DNA of 59,371 nt, taken from IMG/VR virus record IMGVR_UViG_3300032234_000591, positions 1-59,371 of that record; one strand, 5' to 3'. Both the position numbers and the translations under genes were made by a program. The stretch is from a virus. Lineage: Duplodnaviria > Caudoviricetes. Numbering within the stretch: the stretch's first letter is position 1; each line of letters opens with the position of its first letter. Below, piece by piece: positions 37,198 to 56,041 of this stretch. The notes beneath the pieces were generated by a model. The model made no database searches. It was not told the origin of the DNA and saw only the letters and a program-made list of their open reading frames with translations.

Positions 37198-39231
37198 TTA
37201 GTAGAATTTAATCTCACATGCGTCTGTTGAGCAATATGCCTCACCTGCAGCCTCAAGATTTTCTACACCATCATAGATGGCAGACCAGTCAATCTTACCA
37301 ATCTTACCAACGTATGCATTATATTCTTCTCTTGTGATTTCAGTATATGGTTGCTGAGGATATGTCTTATTTCCCATTGGAAGGAATGAAACTGCCTTAA
37401 GCTGCCCCTCATACATATTTAGTGCTGGAGCAACAAACTTCTTCTCTTCCTCCTTATCAAATGACAGGGTTACAGAAACACCATTATCTGACCAGTACTT
37501 CTGAGCAGTTGCTGCAAGACCAATCTTTTCAAACAAACTTACCTGCTTCTCAGAACGCTTGTGTCCTGATGCCACTGGGAAGTATACTACTGAGGTATTT
37601 GCTGATACTAGATCATCTTCAATCTTATACCCCGCTGCTTTGAAAAGATGAAGCATTGGATCTTGATTACCAAAACGAATAGCACGAAGATAGAATTCTC
37701 CACCAGGTCCCCAGTGAACTCCAGGGGTAGCACCAGAAAGGAGCGAAACAGATCCTGATGGCTTAACTGTTGTTACACGAACTGATTCACGAACACATAG
37801 CCATTCTGAATAACGATGATCATGCTTACGAATTGTATTATAACCTTCGTCCATCCACTCACGTGTTGTTGGAAGACCATGCTCATCAGCAAATGCAGCA
37901 ATACCTGTCAAAGATGTACCAATACGACGGTTTCTTTGCATAATACCGTTTGTCTGTTGCCAATGTGTTGGCATCAAAGTTACAGTCTTTCCATAAAGGT
38001 AAGCAAACTTCAATGTCTTGAGGAAGTCCTCCTTGGATTCATGACGGTTCAAGTGCACTTCTACAAGTGTACAAAGTTCGTATGACTCCAATGGCTGCTC
38101 CGCACAAGGATTGAAGCCCATAATGCGAGTGTCCTTATAGTCAGGAGCATCTGCAAGACGGCCATAATTACGAGCAACATCAAGCCAGATAAAACCTGGC
38201 TCTCCGTTATCTGCAATTAAATCTACATAATCTTCATACTTGGTTCCAACTTCTGCTGCGATTGAGTTATTTGACATCCATGCCCAGCCTGGCTTTTCTG
38301 GATCATATGAATTTCTTTCTGGAAATACTTCTGGATTCTTCAGATTAATAAATCCTTCATCATTTGGTGTACCAAGTGCAAGGGTAGCAGAACGACGAAC
38401 ATTTCCAGAAACAACGCATGTACCAATAAGATTTACAATGTCTACAATAGCACGGCTATCTAAATGCTCTCCTGCTCTAGAACCAATTACATTTCTAATC
38501 CGTGTATGGAGATCAATAAGTGGCTGTGGACCGCTTGCAACGCCTCCAAAGCCCTTAATAGGGGCTCCTAGAGGACGGATAAGGTCATAGCTAAATTCTT
38601 GAATTGATTGATTCTGGCGTAGGAATGAGTTGATCAAAAGACGAACTGATTCAACCCATCCTTCACGAGTATCAGGAATTTCATAAATAGATACTGGCTC
38701 TGTTGGTGCATAAATAGACATCTGCTTATCTTGTCCAAGAGTATCAAATCCTACTCCAATACCCAGCATCAATGCATCCATAACCCAGGCAAATAGGGCT
38801 CCTGGATCATTGCGATCAATATCACGAGTAGACACCATTGCACAATTTTGAAGGGAAGCAGAGTTACGCTTCTCCATAGTCATTGGAGTACCAAATGCCC
38901 ATAGGCCTCTTCCTGGTGGTGTCCACTTCAATTCAAACATTCTTTGGAATGCCTCTTGAGCAGACTTCTGTGCCTTATTATCATTCCATGGTAGACGGTT
39001 ATCCTTAGCATGGTTCTTCTGTACTGAGTACATACCCTCAATTACACGACGGCAGACTTCATGCCAGCGTTCCTTTGTGCCGTCCTCTTTTACACGGGAA
39101 TAAGTACGAATGAACGTAATCTCTCCTAATGAGTTAGATCCTGCATCTGAGAATCCAAATGGTGCAGGGACAGTAGAGTACTTATTTACAAAGTCCTCTG
39201 ATAGACGGAATGAGAATACACTTTCTGACAT
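37198..39231 (-). CDS. nrdJ: class II (adenosylcobalamin-dependent) ribonucleotide reductase, monomeric RTPR type
   Basis: RTYSR, PPGRGLW, LQNCA, GNVRRSA, NPCAEQ, TTVKPSGSVS, C-terminal CSTDAC. Confidence 0.93.
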   Translation of the reverse strand: MSESVFSFRLSEDFVNKYSTVPAPFGFSDAGSNSLGEITFIRTYSRVKEDGTKERWHEVCRRVIEGMYSVQKNHAKDNRLPWNDNKAQKSAQEAFQRMFELKWTPPGRGLWAFGTPMTMEKRNSASLQNCAMVSTRDIDRNDPGALFAWVMDALMLGIGVGFDTLGQDKQMSIYAPTEPVSIYEIPDTREGWVESVRLLINSFLRQNQSIQEFSYDLIRPLGAPIKGFGGVASGPQPLIDLHTRIRNVIGSRAGEHLDSRAIVDIVNLIGTCVVSGNVRRSATLALGTPNDEGFINLKNPEVFPERNSYDPEKPGWAWMSNNSIAAEVGTKYEDYVDLIADNGEPGFIWLDVARNYGRLADAPDYKDTRIMGFNPCAEQPLESYELCTLVEVHLNRHESKEDFLKTLKFAYLYGKTVTLMPTHWQQTNGIMQRNRRIGTSLTGIAAFADEHGLPTTREWMDEGYNTIRKHDHRYSEWLCVRESVRVTTVKPSGSVSLLSGATPGVHWGPGGEFYLRAIRFGNQDPMLHLFKAAGYKIEDDLVSANTSVVYFPVASGHKRSEKQVSLFEKIGLAATAQKYWSDNGVSVTLSFDKEEEKKFVAPALNMYEGQLKAVSFLPMGNKTYPQQPYTEITREEYNAYVGKIGKIDWSAIYDGVENLEAAGEAYCSTDACEIKFY

Positions 39232-39382: not shown

Positions 39383-40048
39383 TCAAAATTTGGTACTATT
39401 GATGTGACAAATTTCAATTTGATTTATATTTACATGTTTTGGTAATGATCCAACCCAATAAATTGATTCTGCTAAATCATCTGCAGTTAATGCTTGTTCT
39501 CTCTTTTGTTCTTGAGTATCAATGGTCGCAGGACATATTTCTGTTATTTTAATACCATACTGAGGAAACTCTAATCTCATTGTATCAATAAGTCCTCTTT
39601 CACCCCTCTTGGCATTTGTATAATTGCCACCTCCACGATATGGTATTTTTCCTCCAAAAGAAGTAATAAAAATAATTGTCGGAGACTCTGACCTTTCCAT
39701 ACATGGGACAAAAAGTTGAGACAGATACATTGGGCCAGTGACATTTATATCATATGCTCTTCTAAAATTCTCTGGTGTTTCATTAATAATATATGTAGGG
39801 GATGAACCTCCACCAGCATTATTTACTAATAGGTCCAAAGTTATGTCTTTGTATTTTTCAGCAAACATTTCTATTGCTAATGAATCTGTAACATCTAGCT
39901 CATAAACCTCAACATTATCTGATATTAGTTGAGAAACTTTAGATAAATCTCTTGAAACAGCAACAACCCTATAGCCATTTTCTGAAAGGCGCTTAACTGT
40001 TGCTAGCCCCACCCCTTTACTAGCACCTGTAACTATTGCTGTTTTCAT
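39383..40048 (-). CDS. short-chain dehydrogenase/reductase (YdfG-like)
   Basis: TGASKGVG, NNAGG, catalytic YTNAK, C-terminal LPKHVNIN. Confidence 0.9.
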   Translation of the reverse strand: MKTAIVTGASKGVGLATVKRLSENGYRVVAVSRDLSKVSQLISDNVEVYELDVTDSLAIEMFAEKYKDITLDLLVNNAGGGSSPTYIINETPENFRRAYDINVTGPMYLSQLFVPCMERSESPTIIFITSFGGKIPYRGGGNYTNAKRGERGLIDTMRLEFPQYGIKITEICPATIDTQEQKREQALTADDLAESIYWVGSLPKHVNINQIEICHINSTKF

Positions 40049-40053
40049 TTATG

Positions 40054-40743
40054 CTACATAGAGCCTTTATGCAGTTCCATATTATTATGAATCCAGTGTC
40101 CTGGAACCATATACTTAAATCCCGTTTTTACAATGTGGGCAGTATGATGATATGGAGCTGATGATGGAAATATTATAATGCTTCCAGCTTTAGGCTTAAG
40201 TCCAAAGTCTATTTCTTTGTTTGCTACTGCAATATCATAGTCAAGATCTGGAGAAGGGAAAGTTCCAATATCTGTATACTCAGACAAGGTAAATGAAATT
40301 TCACCACCCTCAAAATCATCATTAAGATACATAACCAAAGAGTATCTAAGAGTCTGATCACCATCTAGCTGATCAAAGTGTGCCCCCATTCCAATTCCAG
40401 ACCTATACTTCTTTATATTGAATACTGGAAATAGTCTTGGCTCATCATTATCACCTATTGAAGTGGCATAATCTTTAGAAACATCATAGAATGATTCCAT
40501 AATAGTGTCAAAAATATAGGACATCTTTGTTTTGTATGGCTCTTCTAGATCTTTAATTTTATTGCTATCAAAAGCTTTTGTTTGTCCGTAAATAAAATCT
40601 TTATCGTTTGATGCTGTCCAATTTTCCCATGGCTGATGACCATTAAGCTCGTCTAGCTCATCAATTGTTTTCATGAGCTGATCAAAGTTTTTAACACCAT
40701 CTTCGTAATAGTATACCTTTTCATGCAATATTTCTTTTTTCAT
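40054..40743 (-). CDS. 2OG-Fe(II) oxygenase, prolyl-4-hydroxylase-like
   Basis: HFD...YLNDDFEGGEI...HTAHIVKTGFKY. Confidence 0.88.
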   Translation of the reverse strand: MKKEILHEKVYYYEDGVKNFDQLMKTIDELDELNGHQPWENWTASNDKDFIYGQTKAFDSNKIKDLEEPYKTKMSYIFDTIMESFYDVSKDYATSIGDNDEPRLFPVFNIKKYRSGIGMGAHFDQLDGDQTLRYSLVMYLNDDFEGGEISFTLSEYTDIGTFPSPDLDYDIAVANKEIDFGLKPKAGSIIIFPSSAPYHHTAHIVKTGFKYMVPGHWIHNNMELHKGSM

Positions 40744-40752
40744 TTGATCTCC

Positions 40753-41412
40753 TCAGTATTTGTTGTTTTCATAAAAGTTAGTAGTTTTAATAAATCCAAC
40801 AAGGACATACCTAATTGGACCCTTACCTACGTGTCTTACACCATGTCTATATTCATCGTTACCTGGAAATAAAAGCAGTGATCCAGGCTTTGGTTTTATC
40901 TCTATGTTGGCATTTTCAAAAAATAATTCTCCATCCACATAGTCATCATTGAGATATAAAATTGCAGCATGCTGTATTGATGGATCTGTATGCTGGTCTG
41001 TATGTGATTTTAATTCAACTCCATCTTGCATTCTTTGAATTGTTGCAAAACCACTCAATTCAAGAGTACTATCAGAGTCAGATACAACTTTACTTAATCT
41101 TTTGTAAATTGGAAGAAACACATCTTCACTTGATATATTAAGATTTTTATCACTCCAGTTTTGGGTTATTTCAAACTTTCCCTCAGCGACCAAGTTATCA
41201 ACATCATCTCTGCCAAACTTTTCCATACAAAATCTTTTTAAGTTTGAGTGATATTCAATATACCAATCTTCTTCTGGCGTATTATTTATAATATCAAACA
41301 TTTCTTGTAATTCTTCTTTTAATAAAAAATTTTCTATTAGCAGAACATCTTCTGTTATATTTTTAACAACAAAGTTATTTGCTTCTAGTTCTTTTTTTAA
41401 AAAAGCAGCCAC
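40753..41412 (-). CDS. 2OG-Fe(II) oxygenase, prolyl-4-hydroxylase-like
   Basis: HTD...YLNDDYVDGEL...HGVRHVGKGPIRY. Confidence 0.88.
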   Translation of the reverse strand: MAAFLKKELEANNFVVKNITEDVLLIENFLLKEELQEMFDIINNTPEEDWYIEYHSNLKRFCMEKFGRDDVDNLVAEGKFEITQNWSDKNLNISSEDVFLPIYKRLSKVVSDSDSTLELSGFATIQRMQDGVELKSHTDQHTDPSIQHAAILYLNDDYVDGELFFENANIEIKPKPGSLLLFPGNDEYRHGVRHVGKGPIRYVLVGFIKTTNFYENNKY

Positions 41413-41414
41413 AA

Positions 41415-42161
41415 CTATAACTCTTCTACTTTATATTTATTGCCATCCATATCAAGCTTATAACCTTCTTTAATAAGATTTTGCCACTCTTCTTTTTCTA
41501 CTTTTTGTGCTTCTCTAATTTTTTTCATTTCTTCAGCCCAGGCATCTCTTGTTTCTTGTGGATATGCAGATTCTTCTCTATCATCCCAAAAAGAACCAAG
41601 TGTATATCTAACACCCTTAGTAATCATTGTCACTTCATGCATATTTGCATGGCCCCCAGCAAAAACAGCAAGCATTCCTACTTTTGGTTCTACCGAAATG
41701 TCATGACTTGGAAACTTTAACAAACCACCTTCAAAGTCTTCATTTAAATAAACAAAAGCTGCATATCTACTTCTTTCAAATGGTCCAGTATTTCCATGCT
41801 CGTCTGTGTTGTCTGAATGTAGTCTTGCATATGCTCCAGGCTCCCACTTTTGAGTATGGTATCCAATTTCAACAATAGTTTTTGGATCTAGATCATGAAT
41901 TGATGCAACTCCATCAATAATTCCCTTTTTAATTTGAGAAAATATATCTGTTGGCAAATCAAAATCCTCAATTTCTTGATCTCCATCTTTTGGAAGTATT
42001 GAAGAATATGACTCATAAAAAGATATTGGTGTCCATAAAATTTTTTCAGACTCTGCCTGCTTATCTAAAACTTTAATTATTTTTGCAGACTCTTCATCAG
42101 TTAGGAAGTTTTCATAAAGTACTATGTCTTCCGTTAGTCTTTTTTTATTGTTTAAGTTCAT
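41415..42161 (-). CDS. 2OG-Fe(II) oxygenase, prolyl-4-hydroxylase-like
   Basis: HSD...YLNEDFEGGLL...HEVTMITKGVRY. Confidence 0.88.
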   Translation of the reverse strand: MNLNNKKRLTEDIVLYENFLTDEESAKIIKVLDKQAESEKILWTPISFYESYSSILPKDGDQEIEDFDLPTDIFSQIKKGIIDGVASIHDLDPKTIVEIGYHTQKWEPGAYARLHSDNTDEHGNTGPFERSRYAAFVYLNEDFEGGLLKFPSHDISVEPKVGMLAVFAGGHANMHEVTMITKGVRYTLGSFWDDREESAYPQETRDAWAEEMKKIREAQKVEKEEWQNLIKEGYKLDMDGNKYKVEEL

Positions 42162-43045
42162 TTTAATCTCACTATTCCCTCTTTTAGATGTGCTTTAGGT
42201 GGATTTGCATCCCTAAACTTTTGTCTTAGATCTTCCTGCATTTCCGCCCATTTATCCTTGCCATACTCTTTTTCTTTTTCTAACCAATAATCTGAGCCAG
42301 GGTAGTATTTTTCAACATACATTCTTGAAAAATATTTATTTTCTCCATAGCTTGGCATGACTCCATGTAAGTATACCCTACCTTCTTCTGTAAGTATTTC
42401 TGGATGTCCAGATGGAAAAACTAAGTAGTCCCCAGCCTTTGGCTTGTATTTTATAAATTTATCATTAACTAAAAAGTCAATCTCTCCACCTTCATAGTCA
42501 TCATTAAAGTATACTAATGCTGTTATTGCAAACTTATATCCTCGTTCTTCTTGTTGCTCTCTTACATAATCTGAATGATACATCATTCCAAATTTATTAT
42601 CTTCTGAGCTTATATCGTATTTGCATATAGTTGGTCCATTGTATCTCCATGCGTTCATTTTATTTCCGTCTGAATCAATGTACAATTCATTAAAGTCTAA
42701 AGGTACGTTATGGTTTTTTGCATAATCTTCTACTACTAAATAAAAGTTTTTATACATTTGAAATAATACGTCTTTTTCATTTTTTTGTTTTTCGGTTATA
42801 GCATCAACTTTTTCAATATTTCCATATTTATCATCACGAGAATATGTATCAATAACTGGATTTAAATATTCTCCAAAATTTGACCACCTTGTCCATTTGG
42901 AAAAAAATCTATCTTCATCATTATTTGTAGAATCTTTTAATGTTTTGTATATCTTATCTATGTCAGTAAAAAGATTTTTATAAACAATGATGTTTGGATA
43001 TATCTCTTCTGACTCAAGAGTTAAAGAATTGCCATTATTTATCAT
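42158..43045 (-). CDS. 2OG-Fe(II) oxygenase, prolyl-4-hydroxylase-like
   Basis: HSD...YFNDDYEGGEI...HGVMPSYGENKY. Confidence 0.85.
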   Translation of the reverse strand: MINNGNSLTLESEEIYPNIIVYKNLFTDIDKIYKTLKDSTNNDEDRFFSKWTRWSNFGEYLNPVIDTYSRDDKYGNIEKVDAITEKQKNEKDVLFQMYKNFYLVVEDYAKNHNVPLDFNELYIDSDGNKMNAWRYNGPTICKYDISSEDNKFGMMYHSDYVREQQEERGYKFAITALVYFNDDYEGGEIDFLVNDKFIKYKPKAGDYLVFPSGHPEILTEEGRVYLHGVMPSYGENKYFSRMYVEKYYPGSDYWLEKEKEYGKDKWAEMQEDLRQKFRDANPPKAHLKEGIVRLK

Positions 43046-43710
43046 TATGGTTGTCTACTTCCTGTATGCTTTTGAATTGTCCAAAAGAATGGTATAACAT
43101 ATCTGATACCACTAGTGATCTCTCTTACACCGTGAACATAGTTTAAGTCCCCTGGGAAAAAGTATGCTGCTCCAGGCTTTGGCTTAAACTCTATACCCTG
43201 GTTTGGAAAATATAGTTCTCCACCTTCATAATCATCGTTAAGATAAAACAAGCCAGCGAGGTCAAACCACGGAAAATCGTTTGGCTCACCGCTTGGCAAC
43301 TGCTTATCAGCATGTGGCATCTGAAGCTGACCTGGAAGCCATCTTACAATTGCTGGACTTGTTTCTTTGGCATCAACTTCAAAATATGCATCTACATCTT
43401 TTTTAAAACGCTGAACCATATTAGAAATAACAATAGATATTTGTGGATCTAATTTATCTAAAGTGTTTGCTGTTGCAACTCTATCTTTCCAGTAGTCAGA
43501 ATCATAAGTTACAACGCCATCTTCATTATAATGAGTTTCTGTTACATCCCAGATTGTTATTCTTTTTGCAGCATCTAGCAAAAACTCATGCTCTTCCTTT
43601 GTCATAAAATTTTCTCTTGCTTGAATATTATCTGGTGATGAGCCAAAAAATCCAGGTGGCGTTATTGATTCGTACTTAACCATATTGCGGTTTTGAATTT
43701 CTTCTATCAT
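43045..43710 (-). CDS. 2OG-Fe(II) oxygenase, prolyl-4-hydroxylase-like
   Basis: HAD...YLNDDYEGGEL...HGVREITSGIRY; start moved to MIEEIQ (43710), 6 nt after a promoter motif. Confidence 0.88.
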   Translation of the reverse strand: MIEEIQNRNMVKYESITPPGFFGSSPDNIQARENFMTKEEHEFLLDAAKRITIWDVTETHYNEDGVVTYDSDYWKDRVATANTLDKLDPQISIVISNMVQRFKKDVDAYFEVDAKETSPAIVRWLPGQLQMPHADKQLPSGEPNDFPWFDLAGLFYLNDDYEGGELYFPNQGIEFKPKPGAAYFFPGDLNYVHGVREITSGIRYVIPFFWTIQKHTGSRQP

Positions 43711-43716
43711 ATTTTT

Positions 43717-43725
43717 ATTATACCA
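43717..43725 (-). promoter_or_regulatory. extended -10 promoter TGGTATAAT inside the oxygenase island (leaderless)
   Basis: 6 nt before the ATG at 43710. Confidence 0.7.
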
Positions 43726-43729
43726 CTTT

Positions 43730-44455
43730 CTACTCGTAAGACCTTCTGGCCCAAACACTATTTTTGTATACACCACCATTTGGAACACGATATTTTTTAC
43801 TATTTTGTGTATTACTAATAATTATATCATTAATTCCTGGAATGACTGCTTCTGATTTCCAATCTTCTCTTAAAAAAGGAAGCATTTGAGCATAGGGAGT
43901 TCCAGCTGGAAGCACTCCAGTCCATCCCTCTTTTACAAAAAATGGCATAGACCCAGGAAGATTTACTTTATCATTATCTATGATGCCAGAAACTGTCATA
44001 AATGGAAGATCGTATCTATTGAATGGTGAAGCATACAATACGCTATATCCATCAGGAACCTTTATTGCCCACTCTGGAAACCAAGCAAAGTGATACTTAT
44101 AGTATCCGTGTGGGTGCTCAAACTGTGGCATTGGATCTCTTCTTGTAACAAAATCTTCATAAAGAGGATTGCTGACTTTTGCAGAGATATTTCCAATATC
44201 ATCTATTGAAAATGTTATATCGCAAGGAGTTACAAGGCTATATCCTGTTGTCATTATATCCAAAAGTGCTGGGCATGCTTTCCATGTTGGTATCTTTCCA
44301 GCATCTGGACCAACCCAATAATCACCGTTTGGCATCTTGGCAAACCTATCTGCCTGTCTATACCAAGACGGAATCAGTTTTGATATAGGTTGAGGCCTTG
44401 ACTCGCTATCTGACTTTAACCAATATCTATTACTAATAAACTCTATTATTTTCAT
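43730..44455 (-). CDS. DUF6065-related protein
   Basis: PQPISKLIPSWY...KACPALLDIMTTGY...SGIIDND...PAGTPYAQMLPF; shares the C-x(0,1)-P...G[YW] and terminal [GN]xP motifs with its two neighbours. Confidence 0.6.
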   Translation of the reverse strand: MKIIEFISNRYWLKSDSESRPQPISKLIPSWYRQADRFAKMPNGDYWVGPDAGKIPTWKACPALLDIMTTGYSLVTPCDITFSIDDIGNISAKVSNPLYEDFVTRRDPMPQFEHPHGYYKYHFAWFPEWAIKVPDGYSVLYASPFNRYDLPFMTVSGIIDNDKVNLPGSMPFFVKEGWTGVLPAGTPYAQMLPFLREDWKSEAVIPGINDIIISNTQNSKKYRVPNGGVYKNSVWARRSYE

Positions 44456-45156
44456 TTTGTATTATCAATCACTGTTAGCTTTAAATTTTTAACCTCATGT
44501 GAACCAACAGACTCTCCCTTTTCGTTTACTGCATTACGATACCAGTCAGTCCACTGTCCTGCTTTATTTACTTCTTGTGCTGCATCTCCATATGCTTGCA
44601 TCTGTATGTTACGCTCTTGCATGTTCTCAAAATTTAAAATTTCAATAGACTCATCTTTTAATGATGTGATAGAAATTGGTATTATTGTTGCTATTGGAGT
44701 ATTAGCCTTTATTGTAATTTCTTTGTTTGGCGTTATACATTTGACAGCTAAGGGAAAATCAGAATCTAGAAAAGAAGTAGAAATAAGAGAAGACATAACT
44801 TCAAGATCTGGATTAAAATAGTTTTGTGGATTTATTGTGAGAACACTCATTTTTTGCTCTGTTCTTAAAATAAACCCTGTATTAAAGCTAACTGTTGATT
44901 GCCCTCTGCCAGTATACACATACTCTTGTCCCTGTAATATTTTTACAGTATCTGGTGTTGTATCATTAATACCGTTCCAAATAAAAGTAATGTCAACTGG
45001 ACAAGATATATACCAACCAATAACATTTGCTGAGGTAACTGGATGACATCTATATGCATGACCCTGTGGAGTTTCATCCATCCAGTCTCTCTTAATACTC
45101 ATTGGAGATATGTCAAGTGCTTTATGATTGAGCTTATAACATTTTACTATTGACAT
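44452..45156 (-). CDS. DUF6065-like protein
   Basis: KRDWMDET...HAYRCHPVTSANVIGW...WNG. Confidence 0.7.
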   Translation of the reverse strand: MSIVKCYKLNHKALDISPMSIKRDWMDETPQGHAYRCHPVTSANVIGWYISCPVDITFIWNGINDTTPDTVKILQGQEYVYTGRGQSTVSFNTGFILRTEQKMSVLTINPQNYFNPDLEVMSSLISTSFLDSDFPLAVKCITPNKEITIKANTPIATIIPISITSLKDESIEILNFENMQERNIQMQAYGDAAQEVNKAGQWTDWYRNAVNEKGESVGSHEVKNLKLTVIDNTK

Positions 45157-45827
45157 TAAGATCCTGTCTCTTCATAAAATTCTGGCTTATGAAACTTATC
45201 GCTATAGTCAAGCATTGTAACCAGTGAGTACTTAGTTCCAGAGTGGACGACCTTTGCTTGATGTGGATACATATAGTTTGATGGAAATAAAACAACATCT
45301 CCAGCTTTTGGCACATAGTTAATACCCTGCAATCTAAAGAACAGCTCTCCACCTTCAAAATCATCATTAAGATATGCCACTAATGAGACGGTACAGTTAT
45401 AAGAAAACCCATGGTCATGATGCTCCATAAAATGATGACCTGGCTCATACTTAATAAAATTGAAAGCTTCCCAGTATCTTAGATTATGTATGTTGAAGCG
45501 TTTACAGTAATCTTCAACTGCAAGACTTTGCCTATCATAACAGTCTTGCCATATTTGCTGTAGCTTTTTAGAATGCTCTGATGGATCGTGTTGTATGTCT
45601 GTCTTTTTAAACTTAAAATCTACACAGTCTCTATATTCTGGCATTCTTTGTCTATATCCAACATATGCTTCTTGCCAGTTATAGTAGTTTGAGGTTTCTT
45701 TACTTAAAACTGACTCTAGTCTATTAATAATATCTAGCTCTTTTGGAAGAACATCATGGTAAACTAAAATTCCTGGAGCTATTTCTTCGCATCCGCTCCA
45801 CGTAATGCCTGTATTATTTATATTCAT
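45156..45827 (-). CDS. 2OG-Fe(II) oxygenase, prolyl-4-hydroxylase-like
   Basis: HHD...YLNDDFEGGEL...HQAKVVHSGTKY. Confidence 0.88.
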   Translation of the reverse strand: MNINNTGITWSGCEEIAPGILVYHDVLPKELDIINRLESVLSKETSNYYNWQEAYVGYRQRMPEYRDCVDFKFKKTDIQHDPSEHSKKLQQIWQDCYDRQSLAVEDYCKRFNIHNLRYWEAFNFIKYEPGHHFMEHHDHGFSYNCTVSLVAYLNDDFEGGELFFRLQGINYVPKAGDVVLFPSNYMYPHQAKVVHSGTKYSLVTMLDYSDKFHKPEFYEETGS

Positions 45828-45844
45828 ACTTTTCTCCTTTTATT

Positions 45845-46552
45845 TTAATTTGATTGATGACCTAAAAGATTTATGTCAGACATAATAACTATACAATACT
45901 TTGTTCCACTTTTCATTGGAAGTGATGCATGCTCATAAATATAATTAGATGGAAAAACTGCAATATCTCCTATTTTTGGAGCATAGGTTAGATTGTCAAG
46001 CCTTGGAAATTGTATTTCTCCACCTTCATAATCATCATTTAGGTAAACTACTATAGAAACTGTTGTATTGTAGTGTGGACCATGATCAGAATGAATTTTA
46101 AATTCTTGCCCCTGCCCCTCATATTTTACAAAATTAAATGCTTCATAATAGCAAACATTTATTCCCCAATAATTAGCATAATCATCAACACACATTTTTA
46201 CAATGTTATACATTTTCTCATAAATATTAAAAAGTTCAGAATTTTTTTCAGTCTTTGGTCCTAAAGTCTTATCATTAAACTTAAAGTCATAGCAGTTTCT
46301 TGCAGCTTTTACTGGTTTATCTGAGGTTGTAACCATTGCTTCGCTCCAACCATATACGGAGCTTTTAGATAAAGTTTCTTCAAGTGTATTTATAACCCAG
46401 ACGACATCTTCTTTACTGATAGCACTTTCATAAATATTTAATCCTAGGGCTGGATTAGAAATGTTAATATTATTTAAAGTTCTTGGAAATCTGGTTGACA
46501 AAGATTCTGATCTATCTTTAGTAAACCATGGATTATCTTCTTCACTATACAT
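45845..46552 (-). CDS. 2OG-Fe(II) oxygenase, prolyl-4-hydroxylase-like
   Basis: HSD...YLNDDYEGGEI...HASLPMKSGTKY; closest to 45156..45827 (shared EAFNFxKYE). Start is 46552 or 46564. Confidence 0.88.
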   Translation of the reverse strand: MYSEEDNPWFTKDRSESLSTRFPRTLNNINISNPALGLNIYESAISKEDVVWVINTLEETLSKSSVYGWSEAMVTTSDKPVKAARNCYDFKFNDKTLGPKTEKNSELFNIYEKMYNIVKMCVDDYANYWGINVCYYEAFNFVKYEGQGQEFKIHSDHGPHYNTTVSIVVYLNDDYEGGEIQFPRLDNLTYAPKIGDIAVFPSNYIYEHASLPMKSGTKYCIVIMSDINLLGHQSN

Positions 46553-46580
46553 AATTTCCCCCAAATTGTACTATTTATAA

Positions 46581-47051
46581 TTATATCACAAACCTGCTTG
46601 ATGATAAAAAGAAGCTAAGATATTTTCTTTCACCAGATTTTATCTTAAGTACCTCGTGCTCATAATCTTTTGATGCTGGGTGACATATTAAACTTCCTTC
46701 TATTGGTTTGTGTATTATATTTTTTTGTGTATACTTTATTTCACCACCAGTATAATCATTGTTGAGATATATAACTATTCCGTAAAAAAAATATTTGTCT
46801 GGATTATCAATACACCATCCGCAATCACAGCCCATTTTATGTTGATCTGAATGAGGCTCTGTATATTCTCCAACTTTTAATGTTTTTATATTTCCAAGAC
46901 CTTCAACACTATACTTATCATTAAATATTTTAGATACTTTATTTTTTATTTCTATTTGCCAATCAATCCATGTATTAGAAACAATGCCGTATAGTTCATC
47001 TTTACTTAAAAAATCTTTAATTAAAAATATATTTTTTTCTAAATTAATCAT
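46581..47051 (-). CDS. short 2OG-Fe(II) oxygenase with a CxCxxC insert
   Basis: HSDQHKMGCDCGWC...YLNNDYTGGEI...HEVLKIKSGERKY. Confidence 0.85.
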   Translation of the reverse strand: MINLEKNIFLIKDFLSKDELYGIVSNTWIDWQIEIKNKVSKIFNDKYSVEGLGNIKTLKVGEYTEPHSDQHKMGCDCGWCIDNPDKYFFYGIVIYLNNDYTGGEIKYTQKNIIHKPIEGSLICHPASKDYEHEVLKIKSGERKYLSFFLSSSRFVI

Positions 47052-47850
47052 TTTCTGTATTATCTTTTATATACTGAATTGGCTTTAAAACTATTTTTTT
47101 TATTGATTCATAAACTTTATTTCCATTCTCATCTATACCTTTTTTATAAAATTGTGGCCAATTATATGGACCATAATCTTCAAAGTGCTGTGATCTCATT
47201 TCTGTATATTTTCTAAAACGTTCACTTTTTTCTTTATTTGCATACTTTATTTCTACATCTGTAATCTCTGTGGTATTTTTTTTATGTATTGATATAAAGC
47301 ATATTGGCATTCCTTTTGGAAAAGTTATTTCTTTGTTTGGACTATTTATTTTCCATGTTACTTGTAGTGGATGATCTATAAAACGATTAGACCTTAATAG
47401 TCCAGTTAATGGTTGAGCATCTTTAAAAATATAATTAGGTGGACCAGAGATAGTTAAAAAGTGTTCATCGTCTGTTTCTGCAACTAATCCAAAAACAAAC
47501 GTAATAGCACCTACCCCTGTATCTGTAGATGCAATCTTTATGCCATTGTAAAATTCTCCAGACAGAACAGAAACATGGCTTGCGTTCTCTCCTTCTATAC
47601 CTTCAGACACTCCGTCCCAACTTATAACAACATCTTGTGGAAGCTTTATTTCCCAACCATTTGACATCGCATCTATTAGCGGGGTACACTTATATGCTAG
47701 TTTATTGTATGTTTTGTCCATCCAGTCTCTACGAATAGATGCTGGCTCAATTTTTGGATATTCTGCATCTATATCTTCAGACCAAAAAATTATTTTTGGA
47801 TTATTGCTTTTAATCTTCTTTGCCCCATTTTCCAATTGGACATTCTGCAT
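47044..47850 (-). CDS. DUF6065-like protein (start uncertain)
   Basis: RRDWMDKT...AYKCTPLIDAMSNGW...WDG; paralog of 44452..45156. The N-terminal extension to 47922 overlaps the upstream gene and is doubtful. Confidence 0.7.
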   Translation of the reverse strand: MQNVQLENGAKKIKSNNPKIIFWSEDIDAEYPKIEPASIRRDWMDKTYNKLAYKCTPLIDAMSNGWEIKLPQDVVISWDGVSEGIEGENASHVSVLSGEFYNGIKIASTDTGVGAITFVFGLVAETDDEHFLTISGPPNYIFKDAQPLTGLLRSNRFIDHPLQVTWKINSPNKEITFPKGMPICFISIHKKNTTEITDVEIKYANKEKSERFRKYTEMRSQHFEDYGPYNWPQFYKKGIDENGNKVYESIKKIVLKPIQYIKDNTEND

Positions 47851-48046
47851 TAGATAAAGTTGTTTTTGATGGCATATAGCATAGGCATTTACTGCATTGT
47901 TTTGTTGGTAAGAAAAACTCACATCCTACACATAAATCCAGCCTAGCTTTAATAATTGATTCGTCTTTAATAATCCTATCTGGATCTAATAAATGCCAAG
48001 GTCTTGAATCACCTAAGCTTTGCTTCCATTCATTCCATTTTGACAT
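47810..48046 (-). CDS. six-Cys small protein (DUF6171-like), paralog of 10281..10556
   Basis: RPWHLL...CVGC...QCSKCLCYM..K..L..AECPIGKW. Confidence 0.75.
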   Translation of the reverse strand: MSKWNEWKQSLGDSRPWHLLDPDRIIKDESIIKARLDLCVGCEFFLPTKQCSKCLCYMPSKTTLSNAECPIGKWGKED

Positions 48047-48067
48047 ATTTCCCCCATTATTTAAACA

Positions 48068-48511
48068 TTATACAGCTTTTATTATTTTTTGTCCATCCCA
48101 TAAGTCACCAAAACCAATATTTTTTTCTAAAGAAATATCTATTACGATTACTTTGTTTTCAAAGGCAGCTTTATATTTTTGATCATATGATTCAGATTTT
48201 GGATTTGCAATTACTCCAAAAATTTTATTATCGGATAGCAAAAAATAAATATTATGATCTTCATCAAAACTAGCTGAGTCTTCTAAGTTTTCGGATATAA
48301 TATTATTTCCATCAAAAATAGCACCAATCTTTATCCCACTATGAATTTGCGTATGAATGGCAATAGCACCTTTTGATATAGCATTTTTATATCTTATATC
48401 TAATTCTGTATCTTTTTCAAAATAGAGTACCTCAAAGATCTCAAATATACCATCTTCTATTTCAACTGCAAGCGCATACTTATTATTAACCATGTTATTT
48501 TTTCTATTCAC
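48068..48511 (-). CDS. hypothetical protein with an internal two-fold repeat, possible fibre-assembly partner
   Basis: Two halves ending IKIGAIFDGNNII and IGFGDLWDGQKII; promoter motif 6 nt before the GTG. Confidence 0.65.
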   Translation of the reverse strand: MNRKNNMVNNKYALAVEIEDGIFEIFEVLYFEKDTELDIRYKNAISKGAIAIHTQIHSGIKIGAIFDGNNIISENLEDSASFDEDHNIYFLLSDNKIFGVIANPKSESYDQKYKAAFENKVIVIDISLEKNIGFGDLWDGQKIIKAV

Positions 48512-48517
48512 AAGAAT

Positions 48518-48526
48518 AGTATAGCA
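48518..48526 (-). promoter_or_regulatory. extended -10 promoter TGCTATACT at the head of the enzyme island (leaderless)
   Basis: 6 nt before the GTG at 48511. Confidence 0.65.
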
Positions 48527-48544
48527 TATTAAGAAGATGTCTTA

Positions 48545-49453
48545 TTAGATAACACACATACCGCCAGCGCAACTTGCTGGTGCCATACATGCTGGTCTAC
48601 AAACCGCAAAGCTTGGGAAGAATGGCGGGAAGAATGGCGGGAAGAAAGGCGGGAAGAAAGGAGGGAAGAATGGTGGGAAGAATGGAAAGAACGGCGGGAA
48701 GAAAGGAGGGAAAAACGGTGGGAAGAATGGTGGGAAGAACGGGAAAAATGGAGGGAAAAATGGTGGAAAGAATGGGAAGAACGGAGGAAAGAATGGTGGA
48801 AAGAATGGTGCTAGGGTTGTAATAGATCCTGATGCTGAAGAAACAATGCTTGTTCCGTTAGCATTAGTGGCTCTGACTGTATATGTTTGAGCTGTACCTG
48901 CTGTATCTGCAATCACAATAGGAGATGTTGCACCTGTTCCAGATGTTCCATCGCTGCCATTTACTGTATAAAGAGTGATAGCTTTTCCACCAGTTGCTGG
49001 TTCTGTAAATGCAATAGAGTTTTGATTGACTCCAGCAGTTGGTACTGGGGCATCCATTTGTGCTGGAACAGTGGTAACAGTTACAGAAGATGATGTTGTT
49101 GTTGGTCCAGTGCCAGCAGCATTATATGGTGCAACAGTAAATGTATAAGATACACCAGAAGCAAGGCCTTGGAATGTATAAGTTCCTCCAGGTCCACCCC
49201 ATGATGGAACATTAGCCGTGTATGTTGTTGGAGTTGTTGAGATAAAGTATCCACTTGTGCGTTCTGGGTCTGCTGGTATAGAAACAGTTACCGCTCCTCC
49301 AGTGTTAGATGCAGACTCTGCCGAGTTTGCAGCAGTAAGCAAATAAGGTCTATTGGTTCCAATATCGGAAACTGTTACTGAGGCAACTGCTCCTGGCTGT
49401 AAAAAGTTATCCTGAGCAGAAGACTTGATTCCTCTTTTTTTGCTTGTTGCCAT
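48545..49453 (-). CDS. FN3-like virion-type protein with C-terminal (P)PFF repeat and Cys-rich tip
   Basis: FQGLASGVSYTFTVAPYNAAGTG and QTYTVRATNANGTS FN3 strands, then the Pro/Phe repeat and AVCRPACMAPASCAGGMCVI. Confidence 0.85.
   Translation of the reverse strand: MATSKKRGIKSSAQDNFLQPGAVASVTVSDIGTNRPYLLTAANSAESASNTGGAVTVSIPADPERTSGYFISTTPTTYTANVPSWGGPGGTYTFQGLASGVSYTFTVAPYNAAGTGPTTTSSSVTVTTVPAQMDAPVPTAGVNQNSIAFTEPATGGKAITLYTVNGSDGTSGTGATSPIVIADTAGTAQTYTVRATNANGTSIVSSASGSITTLAPFFPPFFPPFFPFFPPFFPPFFPFFPPFFPPFFPPFFPPFFPFFPPFFPPFFPPFFPPFFPPFFPSFAVCRPACMAPASCAGGMCVI
48608..48808 (-). repeat. coding repeat: 13 x PPFF + 4 x PFF + PSF (67 aa)
   Basis: 12/9-bp units on the + strand (gaagaatggcgg, gaagaaaggagg, gaagaatggtgg) that vary at synonymous positions. 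Confidence 0.97.
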
Positions 49454-49472: not shown

Positions 49473-51704
49473 TTACGCTGATAGATCGCCCATTACAACC
49501 CATGTATTTGCTGCTCTCTTAAAGAGAGTTGCAGATGACCATTGAGTTCTTAGCTTTAATCCTGGTGTTGCATTTACTGTTACTCCACCTGCACCTGCAA
49601 TTGTTACTTGTCCAGTTGATGTTTGAAGAACATCTATTGATGTTCCAACTGGGAAGTTAAGTGTAGAATCTGCTGGTATTGTTAGAGTCATTGCAGATGA
49701 AGAGCCCATCTCAATCAACTCATCTCTTTCTGCTACATCAGTAAGTGTATATGATGAAGTTTTTTGAATAATTAGTGTACGTGATGGAACACCTTCTTTT
49801 GTCTGTGTACCGTCCGTAAAGGCCACTCCTGATGCTGCAACTGTTACCAATCCAGTAAATGTTGGGGCATTAATTGGAGCCTTTAAATCTACAGAATCTT
49901 TTGTAGCAGTAACTGCTGTATCAATTGATATAATTCCTGGTGTTGCTTCTTGCAAACCATTCCCAGCGACAACTGTCTTTGCAGCATTAAATTCTGCATA
50001 TGTAATGTTATCTGTACCAATTACAATTGGGTTTGCTGATGAATTATTGATATATCCAATAGATGCATTTACTGTTCCAGCCTGTACGAACGTAAAGTCA
50101 CCATTTTTCATTTCTCCAGTAGGGTTATTGTCTGAATCTGTTGCACGAGTTAATACCCATGGAGTTGATCCTGAACCATTTGTTGTTAATACATAAATAC
50201 CGTTTTGCTTTGCATCTGTCTGGTTCTTGATAAGAACTCTTTGACCAACAACAACTGATTCTCCATCAATTTGATTAAAGGCACGGTTTGTATCTGCTGT
50301 AAGAGTTGCTCCTACCCCAGATGTTCCATTTGAGTAGTTTGCTGCTAAATTGTTTACTGATGCTGCATGTACTGCTTCATGGAAATTAATTCCAGCAATT
50401 ACGTTATCAACATAAAGCTTGGTTACTGCATGTAGATCTGATGAAGGTGCACCTGATAGTGTAAGTGCTCCTGTCATTGTACCCCCAGCAAGTGACAATT
50501 TATCATCTAGCGCTGTTTGTGTTGCAGTTGATATTGGCTTATTAGCATCTGAAGTATTATCAACATTATTTAGGCCAAGAGAAAGCTTGGTTACTGTAGC
50601 TGCTGCATCTGTTGCTGCATTATCTGCATAAGTTTTTGTAGCCAGCGCTGATGTATCTGCAATGCCGTGAACTGAAGTTGTATCTGAATTGTGTGTTGAT
50701 ACTGCTGAATCTGCATAAGTTTGTGCAGCAGATTGTGCATCAGAAACGTTTGTGGTTGTTGCAAGCAATGATGTATCTGCAATGCCGTGGATGCTTGTAG
50801 TATCTGACTGATGGTTAGAAACTGCAGTTGATGCAGCAGAATCTGCATAGGTCTTTGTGGCTAGCTCTGCTGTATCTGAAATTCCATGAACTGATGTTGT
50901 ATCAGATGAGTGTGTGCTAACTGCACTATCTGCGTATGTCTTTGTTGCAAGTTCTGCTGTATCTGAAATTCCATGAACTCCTGTTGTATCATCGCTATGT
51001 GTAGAAATAGATGTTGTTACATAAGAATTTGTTGCTAAATCAGCAGTGTTTAAAATACCATGAACATTAGTTGTATCTGCATTATGTACTGAAACTGAGC
51101 CATCTGCGTAACCCTTTGTTGCTAAATCTGCAGTATCTGCAATTCCATGAACTGATGTTGTATCTAGGCTATGGGTTCCAACAGCACCATCTGCATAATC
51201 TTTTGTTGCTAATGCTGCTGTGTCTGAAATTCCATGTACTGATGTTGTGTCATTTGAATGTGTGGTAATTGATGTATCAACATAGCTTGTTGAGGCAACA
51301 GAGGAATCAACATCAAACTGATCTGTGGATGCATTCCAATCAAGTCCAGCTCCTGCTGCACTTGCTGCATCAAATGTTGAGTTAGCAACTGCTGTATCAA
51401 CATAAGTTTCTGTTGCAAGGTTAGCTAGGAAGTTTGCATCATCTCCAAGGGCTGCTGCAAGCTCATTAAGTGTATTAAGAGCGGCAGGTGCTCCATCAAT
51501 AAGGTTGCTAATGGCTGTAGTGATTGACTCAGCGTCGGTGAAATATGTAAGATCTACCCAGTGATTAACACCGTCTCCAACCTTAAATTTATTGGTATCT
51601 GACTCAAAGCCAATTTCACCAGCTGCAAGAATAGGTCCGTTACCTGAGTTTGTAGAGATCCACTGTGAAGCGGTACCTCTACGCTGTTGCATTCTTGTTG
51701 CCAT
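49473..51704 (-). CDS. tail fibre-like protein with seven His-containing ~29-aa repeats
   Basis: N-terminal MQQRRGTASQW...LAAGEIGFESDTNKFKVGDG fibre-anchor motif, APAALNTLNELAAALGDD, HxxDTTxVHGIxDTAxLATK repeats, C-terminal WVVMGDLSA. Confidence 0.8.
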   Translation of the reverse strand: MATRMQQRRGTASQWISTNSGNGPILAAGEIGFESDTNKFKVGDGVNHWVDLTYFTDAESITTAISNLIDGAPAALNTLNELAAALGDDANFLANLATETYVDTAVANSTFDAASAAGAGLDWNASTDQFDVDSSVASTSYVDTSITTHSNDTTSVHGISDTAALATKDYADGAVGTHSLDTTSVHGIADTADLATKGYADGSVSVHNADTTNVHGILNTADLATNSYVTTSISTHSDDTTGVHGISDTAELATKTYADSAVSTHSSDTTSVHGISDTAELATKTYADSAASTAVSNHQSDTTSIHGIADTSLLATTTNVSDAQSAAQTYADSAVSTHNSDTTSVHGIADTSALATKTYADNAATDAAATVTKLSLGLNNVDNTSDANKPISTATQTALDDKLSLAGGTMTGALTLSGAPSSDLHAVTKLYVDNVIAGINFHEAVHAASVNNLAANYSNGTSGVGATLTADTNRAFNQIDGESVVVGQRVLIKNQTDAKQNGIYVLTTNGSGSTPWVLTRATDSDNNPTGEMKNGDFTFVQAGTVNASIGYINNSSANPIVIGTDNITYAEFNAAKTVVAGNGLQEATPGIISIDTAVTATKDSVDLKAPINAPTFTGLVTVAASGVAFTDGTQTKEGVPSRTLIIQKTSSYTLTDVAERDELIEMGSSSAMTLTIPADSTLNFPVGTSIDVLQTSTGQVTIAGAGGVTVNATPGLKLRTQWSSATLFKRAANTWVVMGDLSA
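50615..51263 (-). repeat. 7 x HxxDTTx[VI]HGIxxTxxLAT repeat
   Basis: Read from the translation; base period 29 aa (87 bp), with two longer units. Boundaries approximate. Confidence 0.9.
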
Positions 51705-51744: not shown

Positions 51745-52212
51745 TTAGTTAAAATTATCTATTGGTGTTCCGCCATCAAAAGTCTGGTCCCAGACCTCAG
51801 TATTGTATAATCCGCCATCAATCTGTGCTGAAAAAATAGCATCATAAAACCCTGCATCTTGAAACACTGTAACAATAAGTCCAGTGCCATCAATTGCGGT
51901 ATCATGAATATGCTGTCTTAGATTATATGTATCTTCAAATGTAGCAATCATGATCCACTCATTTGCCTCTGTAGAGTAGACAGATAAGTGACGAGTGGTG
52001 TTATCAAAGTAGAACTGTCCATCAACTGGGTTTTCTGGAGCTTCTGACTCTGTTGGTATTACTACTGATGTAAACTTTCCGTCTACATATTCTTTTGTTG
52101 CTGCGTGTGCATTTTCAGTAGGTGTTCCTACTTCAACGGTACCGCCAAAAGATCCACCAAGGGCAACGACTAACCCATTCTTTACTTTAAAATCTTTGTC
52201 TGTCGTTGCCAC
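51745..52212 (-). CDS. small fibre-associated protein
   Basis: MATTDKDFKVKNGLVV shared with the adjacent gene; HAATKEYVD and P.NPVDGQFYFD fibre motifs. Confidence 0.7.
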   Translation of the reverse strand: MATTDKDFKVKNGLVVALGGSFGGTVEVGTPTENAHAATKEYVDGKFTSVVIPTESEAPENPVDGQFYFDNTTRHLSVYSTEANEWIMIATFEDTYNLRQHIHDTAIDGTGLIVTVFQDAGFYDAIFSAQIDGGLYNTEVWDQTFDGGTPIDNFN

Positions 52213-54871: not shown

Positions 54872-55318
54872 CTATGCCTTCAAGCCAATACGTGCATAAC
54901 GTACTGTTATTGGGGTGATCCCTTGGGCTGGTGTAACACTGAGGGCAACTGTGTTACTAACCCTGGAGACATTAATGGTGCCAATATTCCCATCATTGTC
55001 TATAACTCCATATTCGCTGACGCTTACATTTGTACCGTCAACAAGTATGGTCATCTCTGTGGCGTAAAATTTATTATCGCCACCAGAAGTCTTCTTGATA
55101 GAGATTAGATACTTAACCATTCTCCATTGTGTTGCATCAAAGTTGTCAAATACCGTAGTATTTTCAATGCCATTAATTTCATTTTCATTATTGCCAAATG
55201 TTCCCAAGTCTGTTGATTGGGCAGCGGTACTATCAATTAAATCTTCATAGTCTGCTTGTGATGGACGATCACCAGTCTGAAACTTGGTTTTTACTGTTGG
55301 AATAGATTGTCTGGCCAT
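54872..55318 (-). CDS. virion protein homologous to the C-terminal domain of 52234..54855
   Basis: FDATQWRMVKYLI...TEMTILVD...SEYGVI versus FAKADYRSAKFLV...TEVLITLD...TEYAIV. Confidence 0.7.
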   Translation of the reverse strand: MARQSIPTVKTKFQTGDRPSQADYEDLIDSTAAQSTDLGTFGNNENEINGIENTTVFDNFDATQWRMVKYLISIKKTSGGDNKFYATEMTILVDGTNVSVSEYGVIDNDGNIGTINVSRVSNTVALSVTPAQGITPITVRYARIGLKA

Positions 55319-55342
55319 GCCCCAATTATATCATCTTTTATA

Positions 55343-55980: not shown

Positions 55981-55986
55981 TTTTAT

Positions 55987-55995: not shown

Positions 55996-56041
55996 CTTGA
56001 AAATAGCAATTATTAGGTTTAATAAAAAAATGTTACAAAAC

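Follow-up and report, generated by a model that had tools for sequence, protein, structure and literature searches.

The 59,371-bp stretch analyzed here (the window) is the whole of IMG/VR record IMGVR_UViG_3300032234_000591, from a freshwater tailed virus (Duplodnaviria; Caudoviricetes), of the linear class and with a CheckV completeness of approximately 55%. From position 49453 to 39383 the minus strand encodes a fibronectin type III (FN3)-like protein ending in (P)PFF repeats, followed by two small genes, by eight 2-oxoglutarate (2OG)-Fe(II) oxygenases interleaved with three DUF6065-type genes, and, as the last gene, by a short-chain dehydrogenase/reductase (SDR). This region recurs as a conserved module throughout a large group of uncultured phages, and the order of fibre gene, PP[FY]F-repeat protein and oxygenase/DUF6065 array was found in approximately 190 uncultured-phage loci. 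The enzymes fall in the protein prolyl-hydroxylase fold class and keep its motifs intact, the arrays adjoin repeat genes of two architectures, and the array co-varies directionally with repeat type. Tentatively, and as a possibility to be taken seriously, we propose that the target of the oxygenase paralogues is the Pro-rich aromatic tail of the fibre-associated protein encoded next to them. The substrate, the chemistry, display on the virion and the roles of the DUF6065 proteins and the SDR are the parts of this proposal that we infer.

The repeat protein and the oxygenases

The run is co-oriented and tightly packed, with overlaps of 1-113 nucleotides (nt) and a largest gap of 33 nt, and a gap of 151 nt separates its end at 39383 from a class II ribonucleotide reductase (RNR) gene. 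Every gene named in a preliminary description of the run (the repeat protein, two small genes, eight oxygenases and the SDR) was present in this arrangement. The GTG starts of 47044-47922 and 43045-43788 are uncertain, as their overlap with the gene upstream amounts to 113 and 59 nt, respectively. The fibre gene and the genes of the run are given below in transcription order, with orthologue counts among the 78 related loci described in the next section and lengths in amino acids (aa).

49473..51704, minus strand: tail-fibre-like protein, 743 aa; Mtd_N N-terminus (Pfam 8.2e-11), PHROG tail-fibre and minor-tail families
48545..49453, minus strand: FN3-like repeat protein, 302 aa; 13 PPFF, 4 PFF and one PSF units, then a 20-residue tip with 4 Cys
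48614..48810, minus strand: DNA tandem array encoding the (P)PFF repeats; Tandem Repeats Finder (TRF) period 12, 17.2 copies, higher-order periods 33, 45 and 57
48068..48511, minus strand: small protein of unknown family, 147 aa; no Pfam or PHROG match
47810..48046, minus strand: Cys-rich protein (cys78), 78 aa; DUF6171 2.6e-4 (below cut-off), phrog_13558 6e-13
47044..47922, minus strand: DUF6065 protein, 292 aa as listed; PF19541 8.5e-32, 111 bits; orthologue in only 3/78 loci
46581..47051, minus strand: oxygenase 1, short form, 156 aa; PF13640 28.9 bits (cut-off 27); orthologues in 9/78 loci
45845..46564, minus strand: oxygenase 2, core, 239 aa; PF13640 1.2e-12; 73/78 loci
45156..45827, minus strand: oxygenase 3, core, modelled, 223 aa; PF13640 4.9e-13; 69/78 loci
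44452..45156, minus strand: DUF6065 protein, 234 aa; PF19541 1.2e-33, 117 bits; start overlaps the oxygenase 3 stop by 1 nt
43730..44455, minus strand: probable distant DUF6065 homologue, 241 aa; phrog_7084 1.4e-30
43045..43788, minus strand: oxygenase 4, core, 247 aa as listed; PF13640 1.5e-7; 68/78 loci
42158..43045, minus strand: oxygenase 5, variable member, 295 aa; PF13640 9.7e-9; 30/78 loci
41415..42161, minus strand: oxygenase 6, 248 aa; PF13640 7.8e-9; 54/78 loci
40753..41412, minus strand: oxygenase 7, 219 aa; PF13640 1.2e-11; 38/78 loci
40054..40743, minus strand: oxygenase 8, 229 aa; PF13640 1.8e-9; 46/78 loci
39383..40048, minus strand: classical SDR, 221 aa, last gene of the run; adh_short (PF00106) 1.8e-39, 135.7 bits; phrog_3142 (FabG-like) 1.3e-43

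The 13 PPFF and 4 PFF units and the 4-Cys tip reported previously were confirmed by counting on the translation, and the underlying DNA array was delimited by TRF. The repeat tail is very hydrophobic and holds no Gly, and hence no collagen-like Gly-X-Y triplets. The designation of the protein as FN3-like was upheld in part: the window protein itself scored 24.2 bits (4.1e-5) against fn3 (PF00041), just under the 25-bit cut-off, and all seven homologues tested scored above it (26.8-40.1 bits). The FN3 family comprised 445 proteins in a large protein set; among the matches listed (120 of 445), most relatives carried a precomputed PF00041 assignment and the names were generic only. Searches of GenBank phages with the region (megablast) and with the repeat protein (tblastn) gave no match, and the literature searched held no description of phage proteins with PPFF-type repeats, the matches listed concerning fractures, fibrils and a plant cyclic peptide. 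We regard the 48545..49453 product as a candidate substrate of the oxygenases, and we infer its display on the virion only from its FN3 domains and its location behind the tail-fibre gene. In most related loci the repeat gene is likewise preceded by a fibre-gene homologue. The fibre gene has a repeat of its own, 4.7 copies of an 87-nt (29-aa) unit at 50841-51253 on the minus strand (TRF), with reiterated '...TTSVHGISDTAELATKTYADSAVSTH...' units.

Eight diverged oxygenases with a retained catalytic motif had been reported downstream. Indeed, all eight passed the curated PF13640 cut-off of 27 bits (28.9-50.3 bits), and a six-frame search of the window with this family listed seven of them. In the alignment, the HxD, Y-x-N-x-D-x-x-x-G, distal His and K/R-Y columns were kept in 8/8; the iron triad (H, D and the distal H) was invariant, and a K or R stood directly before an invariant Tyr. 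In oxygenase 3, residues H136, D138, H189 and K199 were invariant among 42 orthologues. The paralogues appear to be old, with each copy conserved separately, because identity between paralogues of the window was 23-44% and identity to the best orthologue reached 94% (84-94%, except for oxygenases 5, 58%, and 1, 35%).

The fold assignment rested on a profile of oxygenases 2 and 3 and on a model of oxygenase 3, and both were in agreement with the prolyl-hydroxylase fold originally proposed. Against the PDB, the best match of the profile was the prolyl 4-hydroxylase (P4H) of Bacillus anthracis (E ~2e-6), followed by the lysyl hydroxylase LH3, PKHD/PiuC and prolyl 3-hydroxylase. The AlphaFold2 model of oxygenase 3 (pLDDT 89.5) was aligned over approximately 215 columns, its full length, at TM scores of 0.66-0.69 and a sequence identity of 13-20% to known prolyl hydroxylases. 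The best 50 PDB matches returned by Foldseek consisted entirely of protein prolyl hydroxylases (the title of one entry says no more than 2OG-Fe(II) oxygenase family oxidoreductase), and they included PHD2/EGLN1, the Trichoplax and Dictyostelium PHD enzymes, Pseudomonas PPHD (with EF-Tu), CrP4H, BaP4H and vCPH of Paramecium bursaria chlorella virus 1 (PBCV-1). No AlkB, TET, JBP or other nucleic-acid oxygenase was among these 50. In a viral structure library, the best matches were dioxygenases of 'uncultured Caudovirales phage' and of cyanophages. The models and alignments thus predict that the oxygenases are catalytically intact members of the protein prolyl-hydroxylase fold class.

Linkage and co-variation in related phages

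The preliminary description had proposed a search for PP[FY]F-type proteins with oxygenase/DUF6065 arrays directly downstream. This association was found from three different anchors. With the window repeat protein as the query, 323 IMG/VR relatives were obtained and 78 loci were kept, in nearly all of which the FN3 region is followed by (P)PFF- or PYF-type repeats. An oxygenase/DUF6065 array lay downstream of the repeat gene in 73/78 loci, and the other five loci end 0-224 bp past that gene. The core of the array consisted of oxygenases 2, 3 and 4 and the two downstream DUF6065-type genes (44452-45156 and 43730-44455), in two alternative orders; the smallest arrays held only oxygenases 2 and 3 with these two DUF6065-type genes, and in some loci extra genes were inserted.

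When 596 Gb of contigs from prokaryote genomes were scanned for the repeat pattern, 28 stretches were returned, 18 of which were spurious low-complexity frames. The remaining ten encoded credible repeat proteins, all on contigs of metagenome-assembled genomes (MAGs), and nine of the ten adjoined phage fibre, oxygenase, DUF6065 or cys78 genes. A second architecture was recognized, with a PASTA-like N-terminus (Pfam PASTA 1.8e-9 in one member) and strict PP[FYHW]F units ending in ...F-K. It occurs in loci L085, L091, L096, L098, L102, L107 and L110-L145, on contigs of up to approximately 174 kb, some of which carry two such genes.

The PASTA-like query gave 36 viral loci; six of the MAG loci were added to these, and repeat open reading frames (ORFs) flanked downstream by 3.5 kb or more were counted. 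An oxygenase or DUF6065 gene lay within 3.5 kb of the repeat ORF in 27/29 cases; of the two exceptions, one was a second copy on its contig and the other encoded a 553-aa protein, with a homologue of cys78 next in line. In the reverse direction, with a DUF6065 protein of the PASTA-like lineage as the anchor and loci with at least 7 kb upstream, a PP[FY]F-repeat ORF was found upstream on the same strand in 37/37 loci (four or more units by regular expression in 34, and three PPYF units plus PPRFK in 3). Clustering by N-terminus resolved the repeat proteins into two unrelated classes, 64 PASTA-like and 25 FN3-like. Both classes carry the same kind of tail beside the arrays.

The array was also predicted to co-vary with repeat composition. 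For the wider family, 80 loci of non-PFF type were fetched (L224-L303). They represent a sister group in which the same FN3 protein bears tails of FSPFG(V)F, FTPFG, GAF or TPYSF units without Pro-Pro (P0014, P0028, P0047 and others). The sister layout is fibre gene, FN3-repeat protein, RNR, small protein and portal, with 0-2 oxygenases, mostly after the RNR gene, and 0-2 DUF6065-type genes; for none of the DUF6065-type genes in this FSPFG-type sample was the 44452-45156 copy the nearest one. In 101 loci of the FN3 family the flank after the repeat gene extended as far as the RNR or portal gene, and of these loci four or more oxygenases were present in 28/31 loci with PFF-type tails and in 0/70 loci with FSPFG-type or other tails (range 0-2). 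Co-variation held for array size; it comprised only two independent changes of repeat type, and none was seen with repeat number.

The tip of the repeat protein varied separately from the array. Among the 78 loci, 41 tips were Cys-rich, 22 short, and 15 consisted of a Hint-like domain of approximately 160 aa, and the tip type changed at least 6 times on the N-domain tree (12 times on the best tree). The small Cys-rich gene of the 47810-48046 type was present in 38/41 loci with Cys-rich tips vs 0/32 others; it followed the tip in approximately 5/6 independent pairs and did the opposite in none (p ~0.06). A homologue of the 147-aa protein (48068..48511) was present in 11/41 Cys-rich-tip loci and 0/32 others. 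The tip and its small Cys-rich partner thus change as one unit, a behaviour usual for host-interaction modules, and the oxygenase array stays constant through these exchanges.

The approximately 160-aa tip domain gave Intein_splicing/Hint matches below the Pfam cut-off, and PF14890 was precomputed on a few relatives. Hint-like tips were seen in L008, L010, L021, L022, L024, L025, L034-L036, L047, L053, L055, L056, L060 and L072. Some of them start with a Cys directly after the repeats, and because of this the sequences suggest that self-processing may take place at the end of the PPFF tail in the Hint-like variants.

DUF6065-type proteins, SDR and genomic setting

Three DUF6065-like genes had been listed in the run. 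Two of them (47044-47922 and 44452-45156) are members of PF19541, the curated cut-off of which is 26.6 bits. The third, 43730-44455, remained below Pfam thresholds, with no family at E <= 0.01, and was homologous by profile comparison (hhalign of its family vs the DUF6065 group, 93% probability, E 3.2e-7); it appears to be a distant DUF6065 homologue and not a family member. A tblastn search of GenBank phages with the 44452-45156 protein gave no match, and the only GenBank phage matches were homologues of 43730-44455, all 49 records being haloarchaeal tailed viruses. In HSTV-2 (L079), the homologue at 6899-7768 lies between thymidylate synthase/DNA polymerase and baseplate genes, the only cultured-virus context found. 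DUF6065 clusters in a protein atlas were mostly viral, and no mention of DUF6065 was found in the literature searched.

The AlphaFold2 model of the 44452-45156 product (pLDDT 89.9) formed a dUTPase beta-barrel. Known dUTPases aligned to it with VIA Z scores of 10.0-10.3 over 111-127 residues, at a root-mean-square deviation of 2.3-4.9 Å, and Foldseek matched it to many dUTPases with E values of 7e-5 to 1e-3; Z was approximately 6 for dCTP deaminases. As modelled, this DUF6065 protein has the trimeric-dUTPase fold, with C-terminal helices outside the barrel and an extra conserved N-terminal motif. The relationship was scarcely visible in sequence searches. PF00692 (dUTPase) was absent from the Pfam matches of all three DUF6065-type proteins and from a six-frame search of the window at E <= 0.1, and no canonical dUTPase was found in five related records. 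A sequence-profile search of the PDB with a mixed DUF6065 alignment gave only a weak match to the dUTPase of white spot syndrome virus (E 0.089), and profiles of two DUF6065 sub-families returned nothing useful there.

The families also differed at putative catalytic positions. In the 43730-44455 family, D160, D162 and Q190 are invariant within GIIDND...GTPxAQ, a region that may resemble the Asp-bearing conserved motif of dUTPases. At the aligned positions the two true DUF6065 proteins carry Ser/Thr and Thr, and their acidic residues are thus replaced. Because thymidylate synthase and RNR genes are its neighbours in relatives, the 43730-44455 product may be a nucleotide-metabolism enzyme that stands outside the tailoring system. 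The suggestion that the DUF6065 genes encode tailoring enzymes found no support, as the fold is that of dUTPases and not of a recognizable tailoring enzyme, and one of the three proteins looks nucleotide-related. The SDR keeps the TGxxxGxG (TGASKGVG) and YxxxK (YTNAK) motifs.

Nearly all long ORFs of the window are on the minus strand. The features around the run are:

56741-57457, minus strand: collagen-like protein with 14 Gly-X-Y triplets and a C-terminal globular part
52234-54855, 51745-52212 and 49473-51704, minus strand: structural/fibre proteins, upstream of the repeat gene in transcription order
37198..39231, minus strand: class II (B12-dependent) RNR, the downstream boundary gene; RNR_Alpha 2.8e-32, RNR-II_ins_dom 2.4e-15

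After the RNR, in transcription order, PHROG matches identified the portal, prohead protease and major capsid genes, and these are followed by a series of very long tail proteins and then by a DnaB-like helicase, a primase, a DnaE-type polymerase and a UvsX-like recombinase. The window encodes a DnaE-type Pol III alpha (2532-5807), the class II RNR (37198-39231) and ThyX (58265-58975); neither tRNA genes nor a canonical dUTPase were found in this fragment. Between 37000 and 52500 no terminator-like site was found on the minus strand, and promoter-like sites were not above chance (56 vs 61.3 in shuffles). A gene at 56120-56695, among the few on the plus strand, encodes a 191-aa product with a hydrophobic N-terminus. 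A second DUF6171-like small Cys-rich protein (10281-10556, minus strand; E 5.8e-4, below cut-off) adjoins the long tail genes, far from the cluster. The host of this phage group is likely actinobacterial, because the window capsid protein is approximately 42% identical to capsids of 120-134 kb Streptomyces phages and WhiB is encoded by 3/3 complete or near-complete relatives (100-120 kb each); WhiB was not found in the window fragment, the CheckV completeness of which is approximately 55%.

The collagen-like protein was considered as an obligate partner of the array. Homologues were present in 2/3 complete relatives, and this candidate was rejected because a 100%-complete relative with 6 oxygenases has none; it was also absent from 3/5 records searched.

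Mechanism, alternatives and known systems

In the proposed mechanism, the oxygenases would hydroxylate prolines of the Pro-Pro/Pro-Phe tail during infection, before virion assembly. Different paralogues could supply different positions or stereochemistries, and possibly modify other residues too, and a hydroxyl group introduced in this way could be oxidized by the SDR. Having lost the acidic motif, the two true DUF6065 proteins could serve as non-catalytic partners or scaffolds. An extended form of this proposal, which we consider doubtful, is an appendage of Pro-aromatic polymer in which up to eight paralogues pattern the hydroxylation of PP[FY]F, the SDR oxidizes the products, DUF6065 trimers act as scaffolds or chaperones, and the exchangeable tips (the Cys-rich tip with its small Cys-rich partner, or the Hint-like self-processing domain) set the binding specificity. 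If true, it would represent a phage counterpart of hydroxyproline-rich wall proteins or of mussel adhesive proteins.

Several observations weigh against action on the tail. Repeat type changed only twice on the N-domain tree, and oxygenase count followed in both independent pairs (2/2; sign test p = 0.5), in the direction predicted but with too few events to carry statistical weight. Oxygenase number was independent of repeat number, complete arrays holding 6-8 oxygenases for 5-32 units, and loci with only three repeat units still had 2-6 oxygenases in the stretch fetched. The Hint-type loci had 2-8 oxygenases. Three PFF-type loci had only two adjacent oxygenases; for one of these (G001, the 108-kb record of L036) the full record contained seven PF13640 matches. 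In G001 a second mini-array, with four PF13640 matches and a DUF6065 gene, lies at 54909-58079, approximately 8 kb from the main repeat gene. Between one and three further oxygenase genes were found elsewhere in the genome in related records, and FSPFG-type phages kept 1-2 oxygenases in 50/70 loci. In addition, a homologue of the fibre gene is common to all samples; the phages sampled are therefore related, and inherited synteny accounts for some of the linkage. The fold of DUF6065, being that of nucleotide enzymes, points in the same direction, as do a gene of the 43730-44455 type directly before the RNR in 20 FSPFG-type loci without an oxygenase downstream of the FN3 gene, and one beside thymidylate synthase in a single haloarchaeal virus locus (HSTV-2).

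One alternative explanation is that these are protein hydroxylases with other targets, such as the fibre, the collagen-like protein encoded in the window or host translation factors, and that the repeat protein is a mere syntenic neighbour. The structural matches include hydroxylases of non-repeat substrates (PHD2 acting on HIF, PPHD on EF-Tu), and the independence of oxygenase number from repeat number, together with the 1-2 oxygenases of FSPFG-type phages, fits such targets. Yet large arrays were confined to PP-type tails (0/70 among the FSPFG-type or other loci), the tail and the array stayed together when the N-terminal domain was swapped, and collagen was missing from the complete relative with 6 oxygenases and from 3/5 records; we therefore judge other targets to be unlikely. 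A mixed cluster is also conceivable, in which oxygenases 2-4 and the 44452-45156 protein serve the repeat protein, and the other oxygenases, the 43730-44455 protein and the SDR have roles unrelated to it and mark a hot-spot of accessory genes. Orthologue occupancy was uneven, with 73/69/68 of 78 loci for oxygenases 2/3/4 vs 30/38/46/9 for oxygenases 5/7/8/1, and minimal arrays, two core orders and inserted extra genes would agree with this arrangement. The variable members, however, lie inside the run in dozens of loci with their catalytic motifs intact, and the mixed cluster overlaps action on the tail rather than excluding it. As a separate explanation it seems very unlikely.

The run could instead be an auxiliary metabolic or nucleotide island, acting on nucleotides, DNA or a small molecule or modulating 2OG/succinate, in which case adjacency to the repeat gene would be historical. 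The dUTPase fold of DUF6065, the adjoining RNR, the invariant acidic and Gln positions of the 43730-44455 family, the position of that family near thymidylate synthase/DNA polymerase (HSTV-2) and RNR (FSPFG-type phages), and the failure to find a canonical dUTPase (PF00692) in the window or in five related records are all in keeping with such an island. So are the oxygenases of cyanophages, which lie among DNA-metabolism genes in two records and for which DNA repair or 2OG modulation was proposed (PMC3037559). On the other hand, the best 50 structural matches of oxygenase 3 were all protein prolyl hydroxylases and the profile matches were likewise without AlkB, TET or JBP, Ser/Thr stands in place of the acidic residues in the true DUF6065 proteins, and a metabolic island is not expected to follow the tail composition of a neighbouring structural protein. 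On balance the island appears improbable, and action of the oxygenases on the Pro-rich aromatic tail is the explanation tentatively preferred here.

Prolyl-hydroxylase-like genes of phages and viruses are common in aquatic viromes, and their use 'remains cryptic' (PMC9301287). The module supplies a concrete, genetically linked candidate substrate that is short enough for peptide synthesis, and the sister phages with FSPFG tails and almost no oxygenases provide natural controls, so that the question of viral P4H-like enzyme function becomes directly testable. The mostly viral family DUF6065 also gains a fold and an initial hypothesis. In abundant freshwater phages, Pro-aromatic repeat proteins with interchangeable tips emerge as a class that had no name before, and the FSPFG/FTPFG/GAF/TPYSF tails suggest a wider class of aromatic-Pro/Gly repeat tails.

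The module shares with bacterial and eukaryotic prolyl hydroxylases the fold, the metal triad and the basic 2OG-binding residue. The known enzymes differ in their substrates (Gly-X-Y repeats, HIF, EF-Tu and Ser-Pro repeats) and do not form eight-gene arrays. Among eukaryotic systems, a possible analogy is offered by the extensin-type hydroxyproline-rich glycoproteins of plants and algae, which have aromatic-containing Pro-rich repeats that are hydroxylated by P4Hs of the PF13640 type. A Chlamydomonas P4H structure is among the matches of oxygenase 3; in contrast to extensins, no glycosyltransferase or peroxidase was found in the cluster (Pfam), the repeat chemistry differs and there is no Ser-Pro(n) motif.

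Clusters for ribosomally synthesized and post-translationally modified peptides (RiPPs), to which the layout had been likened, resemble the module in having a repetitive peptide-like segment beside several modifying enzymes in one co-oriented run. RiPP-like logic was nevertheless abandoned: the 'precursor' is a 302-aa, two-domain structural FN3 protein that follows a tail-fibre gene, and Pfam/PHROG searches of 17 neighbouring products revealed neither a leader peptide nor a peptidase, transporter or RiPP recognition element. The DUF6065 model aligned to trimeric dUTPases of bacterial, eukaryotic and viral origin, and to the dUTPase-related herpesvirus proteins pp71 and ORF10 with Z scores of 7-9. 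The true DUF6065 proteins are unlike trimeric dUTPases in lacking a PF00692 sequence match and in the replacement of the acidic motif by Ser/Thr.

The closest relatives in cultured phages are the 2OG-Fe(II) oxygenases of cyanophages, at 26-37% identity, which are likewise multi-copy, with as many as 5 in one genome (PMC3037559). The cyanophage enzymes differ in their setting, among endonuclease V, helicase, thymidylate synthase and NrdC genes in two records, which is a further point against action on a structural protein. A repeat protein is not annotated in these two cyanophage records, for which annotations were consulted and no repeat scan was run.

The nearest viral precedent is vCPH/A085R of PBCV-1, a virus-encoded enzyme of the 2OG/Fe(II) prolyl-hydroxylase fold, the structure of which (5c5t) matched oxygenase 3. 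For the PBCV-1 P4H, the one viral P4H characterized in vitro, PMC7019647 describes the role and natural substrate as not known and hydroxyproline as not detected in virions, which likewise weighs against hydroxylation of a virion protein. PBCV-1 is a eukaryotic giant virus with a single enzyme and no adjacent substrate gene, whereas in the tailed phage described here a Pro-Phe repeat protein is immediately followed by eight paralogues together with an SDR and dUTPase-fold proteins. No description of such a module was found in the literature searched for prolyl hydroxylase and phage, paper supplements lying outside the search. A viral prolyl hydroxylase that acts in vitro on viral Pro-rich repeats was already known from PBCV-1; new here are the multi-paralogue array, its dUTPase-fold companions and a genetically linked candidate substrate.

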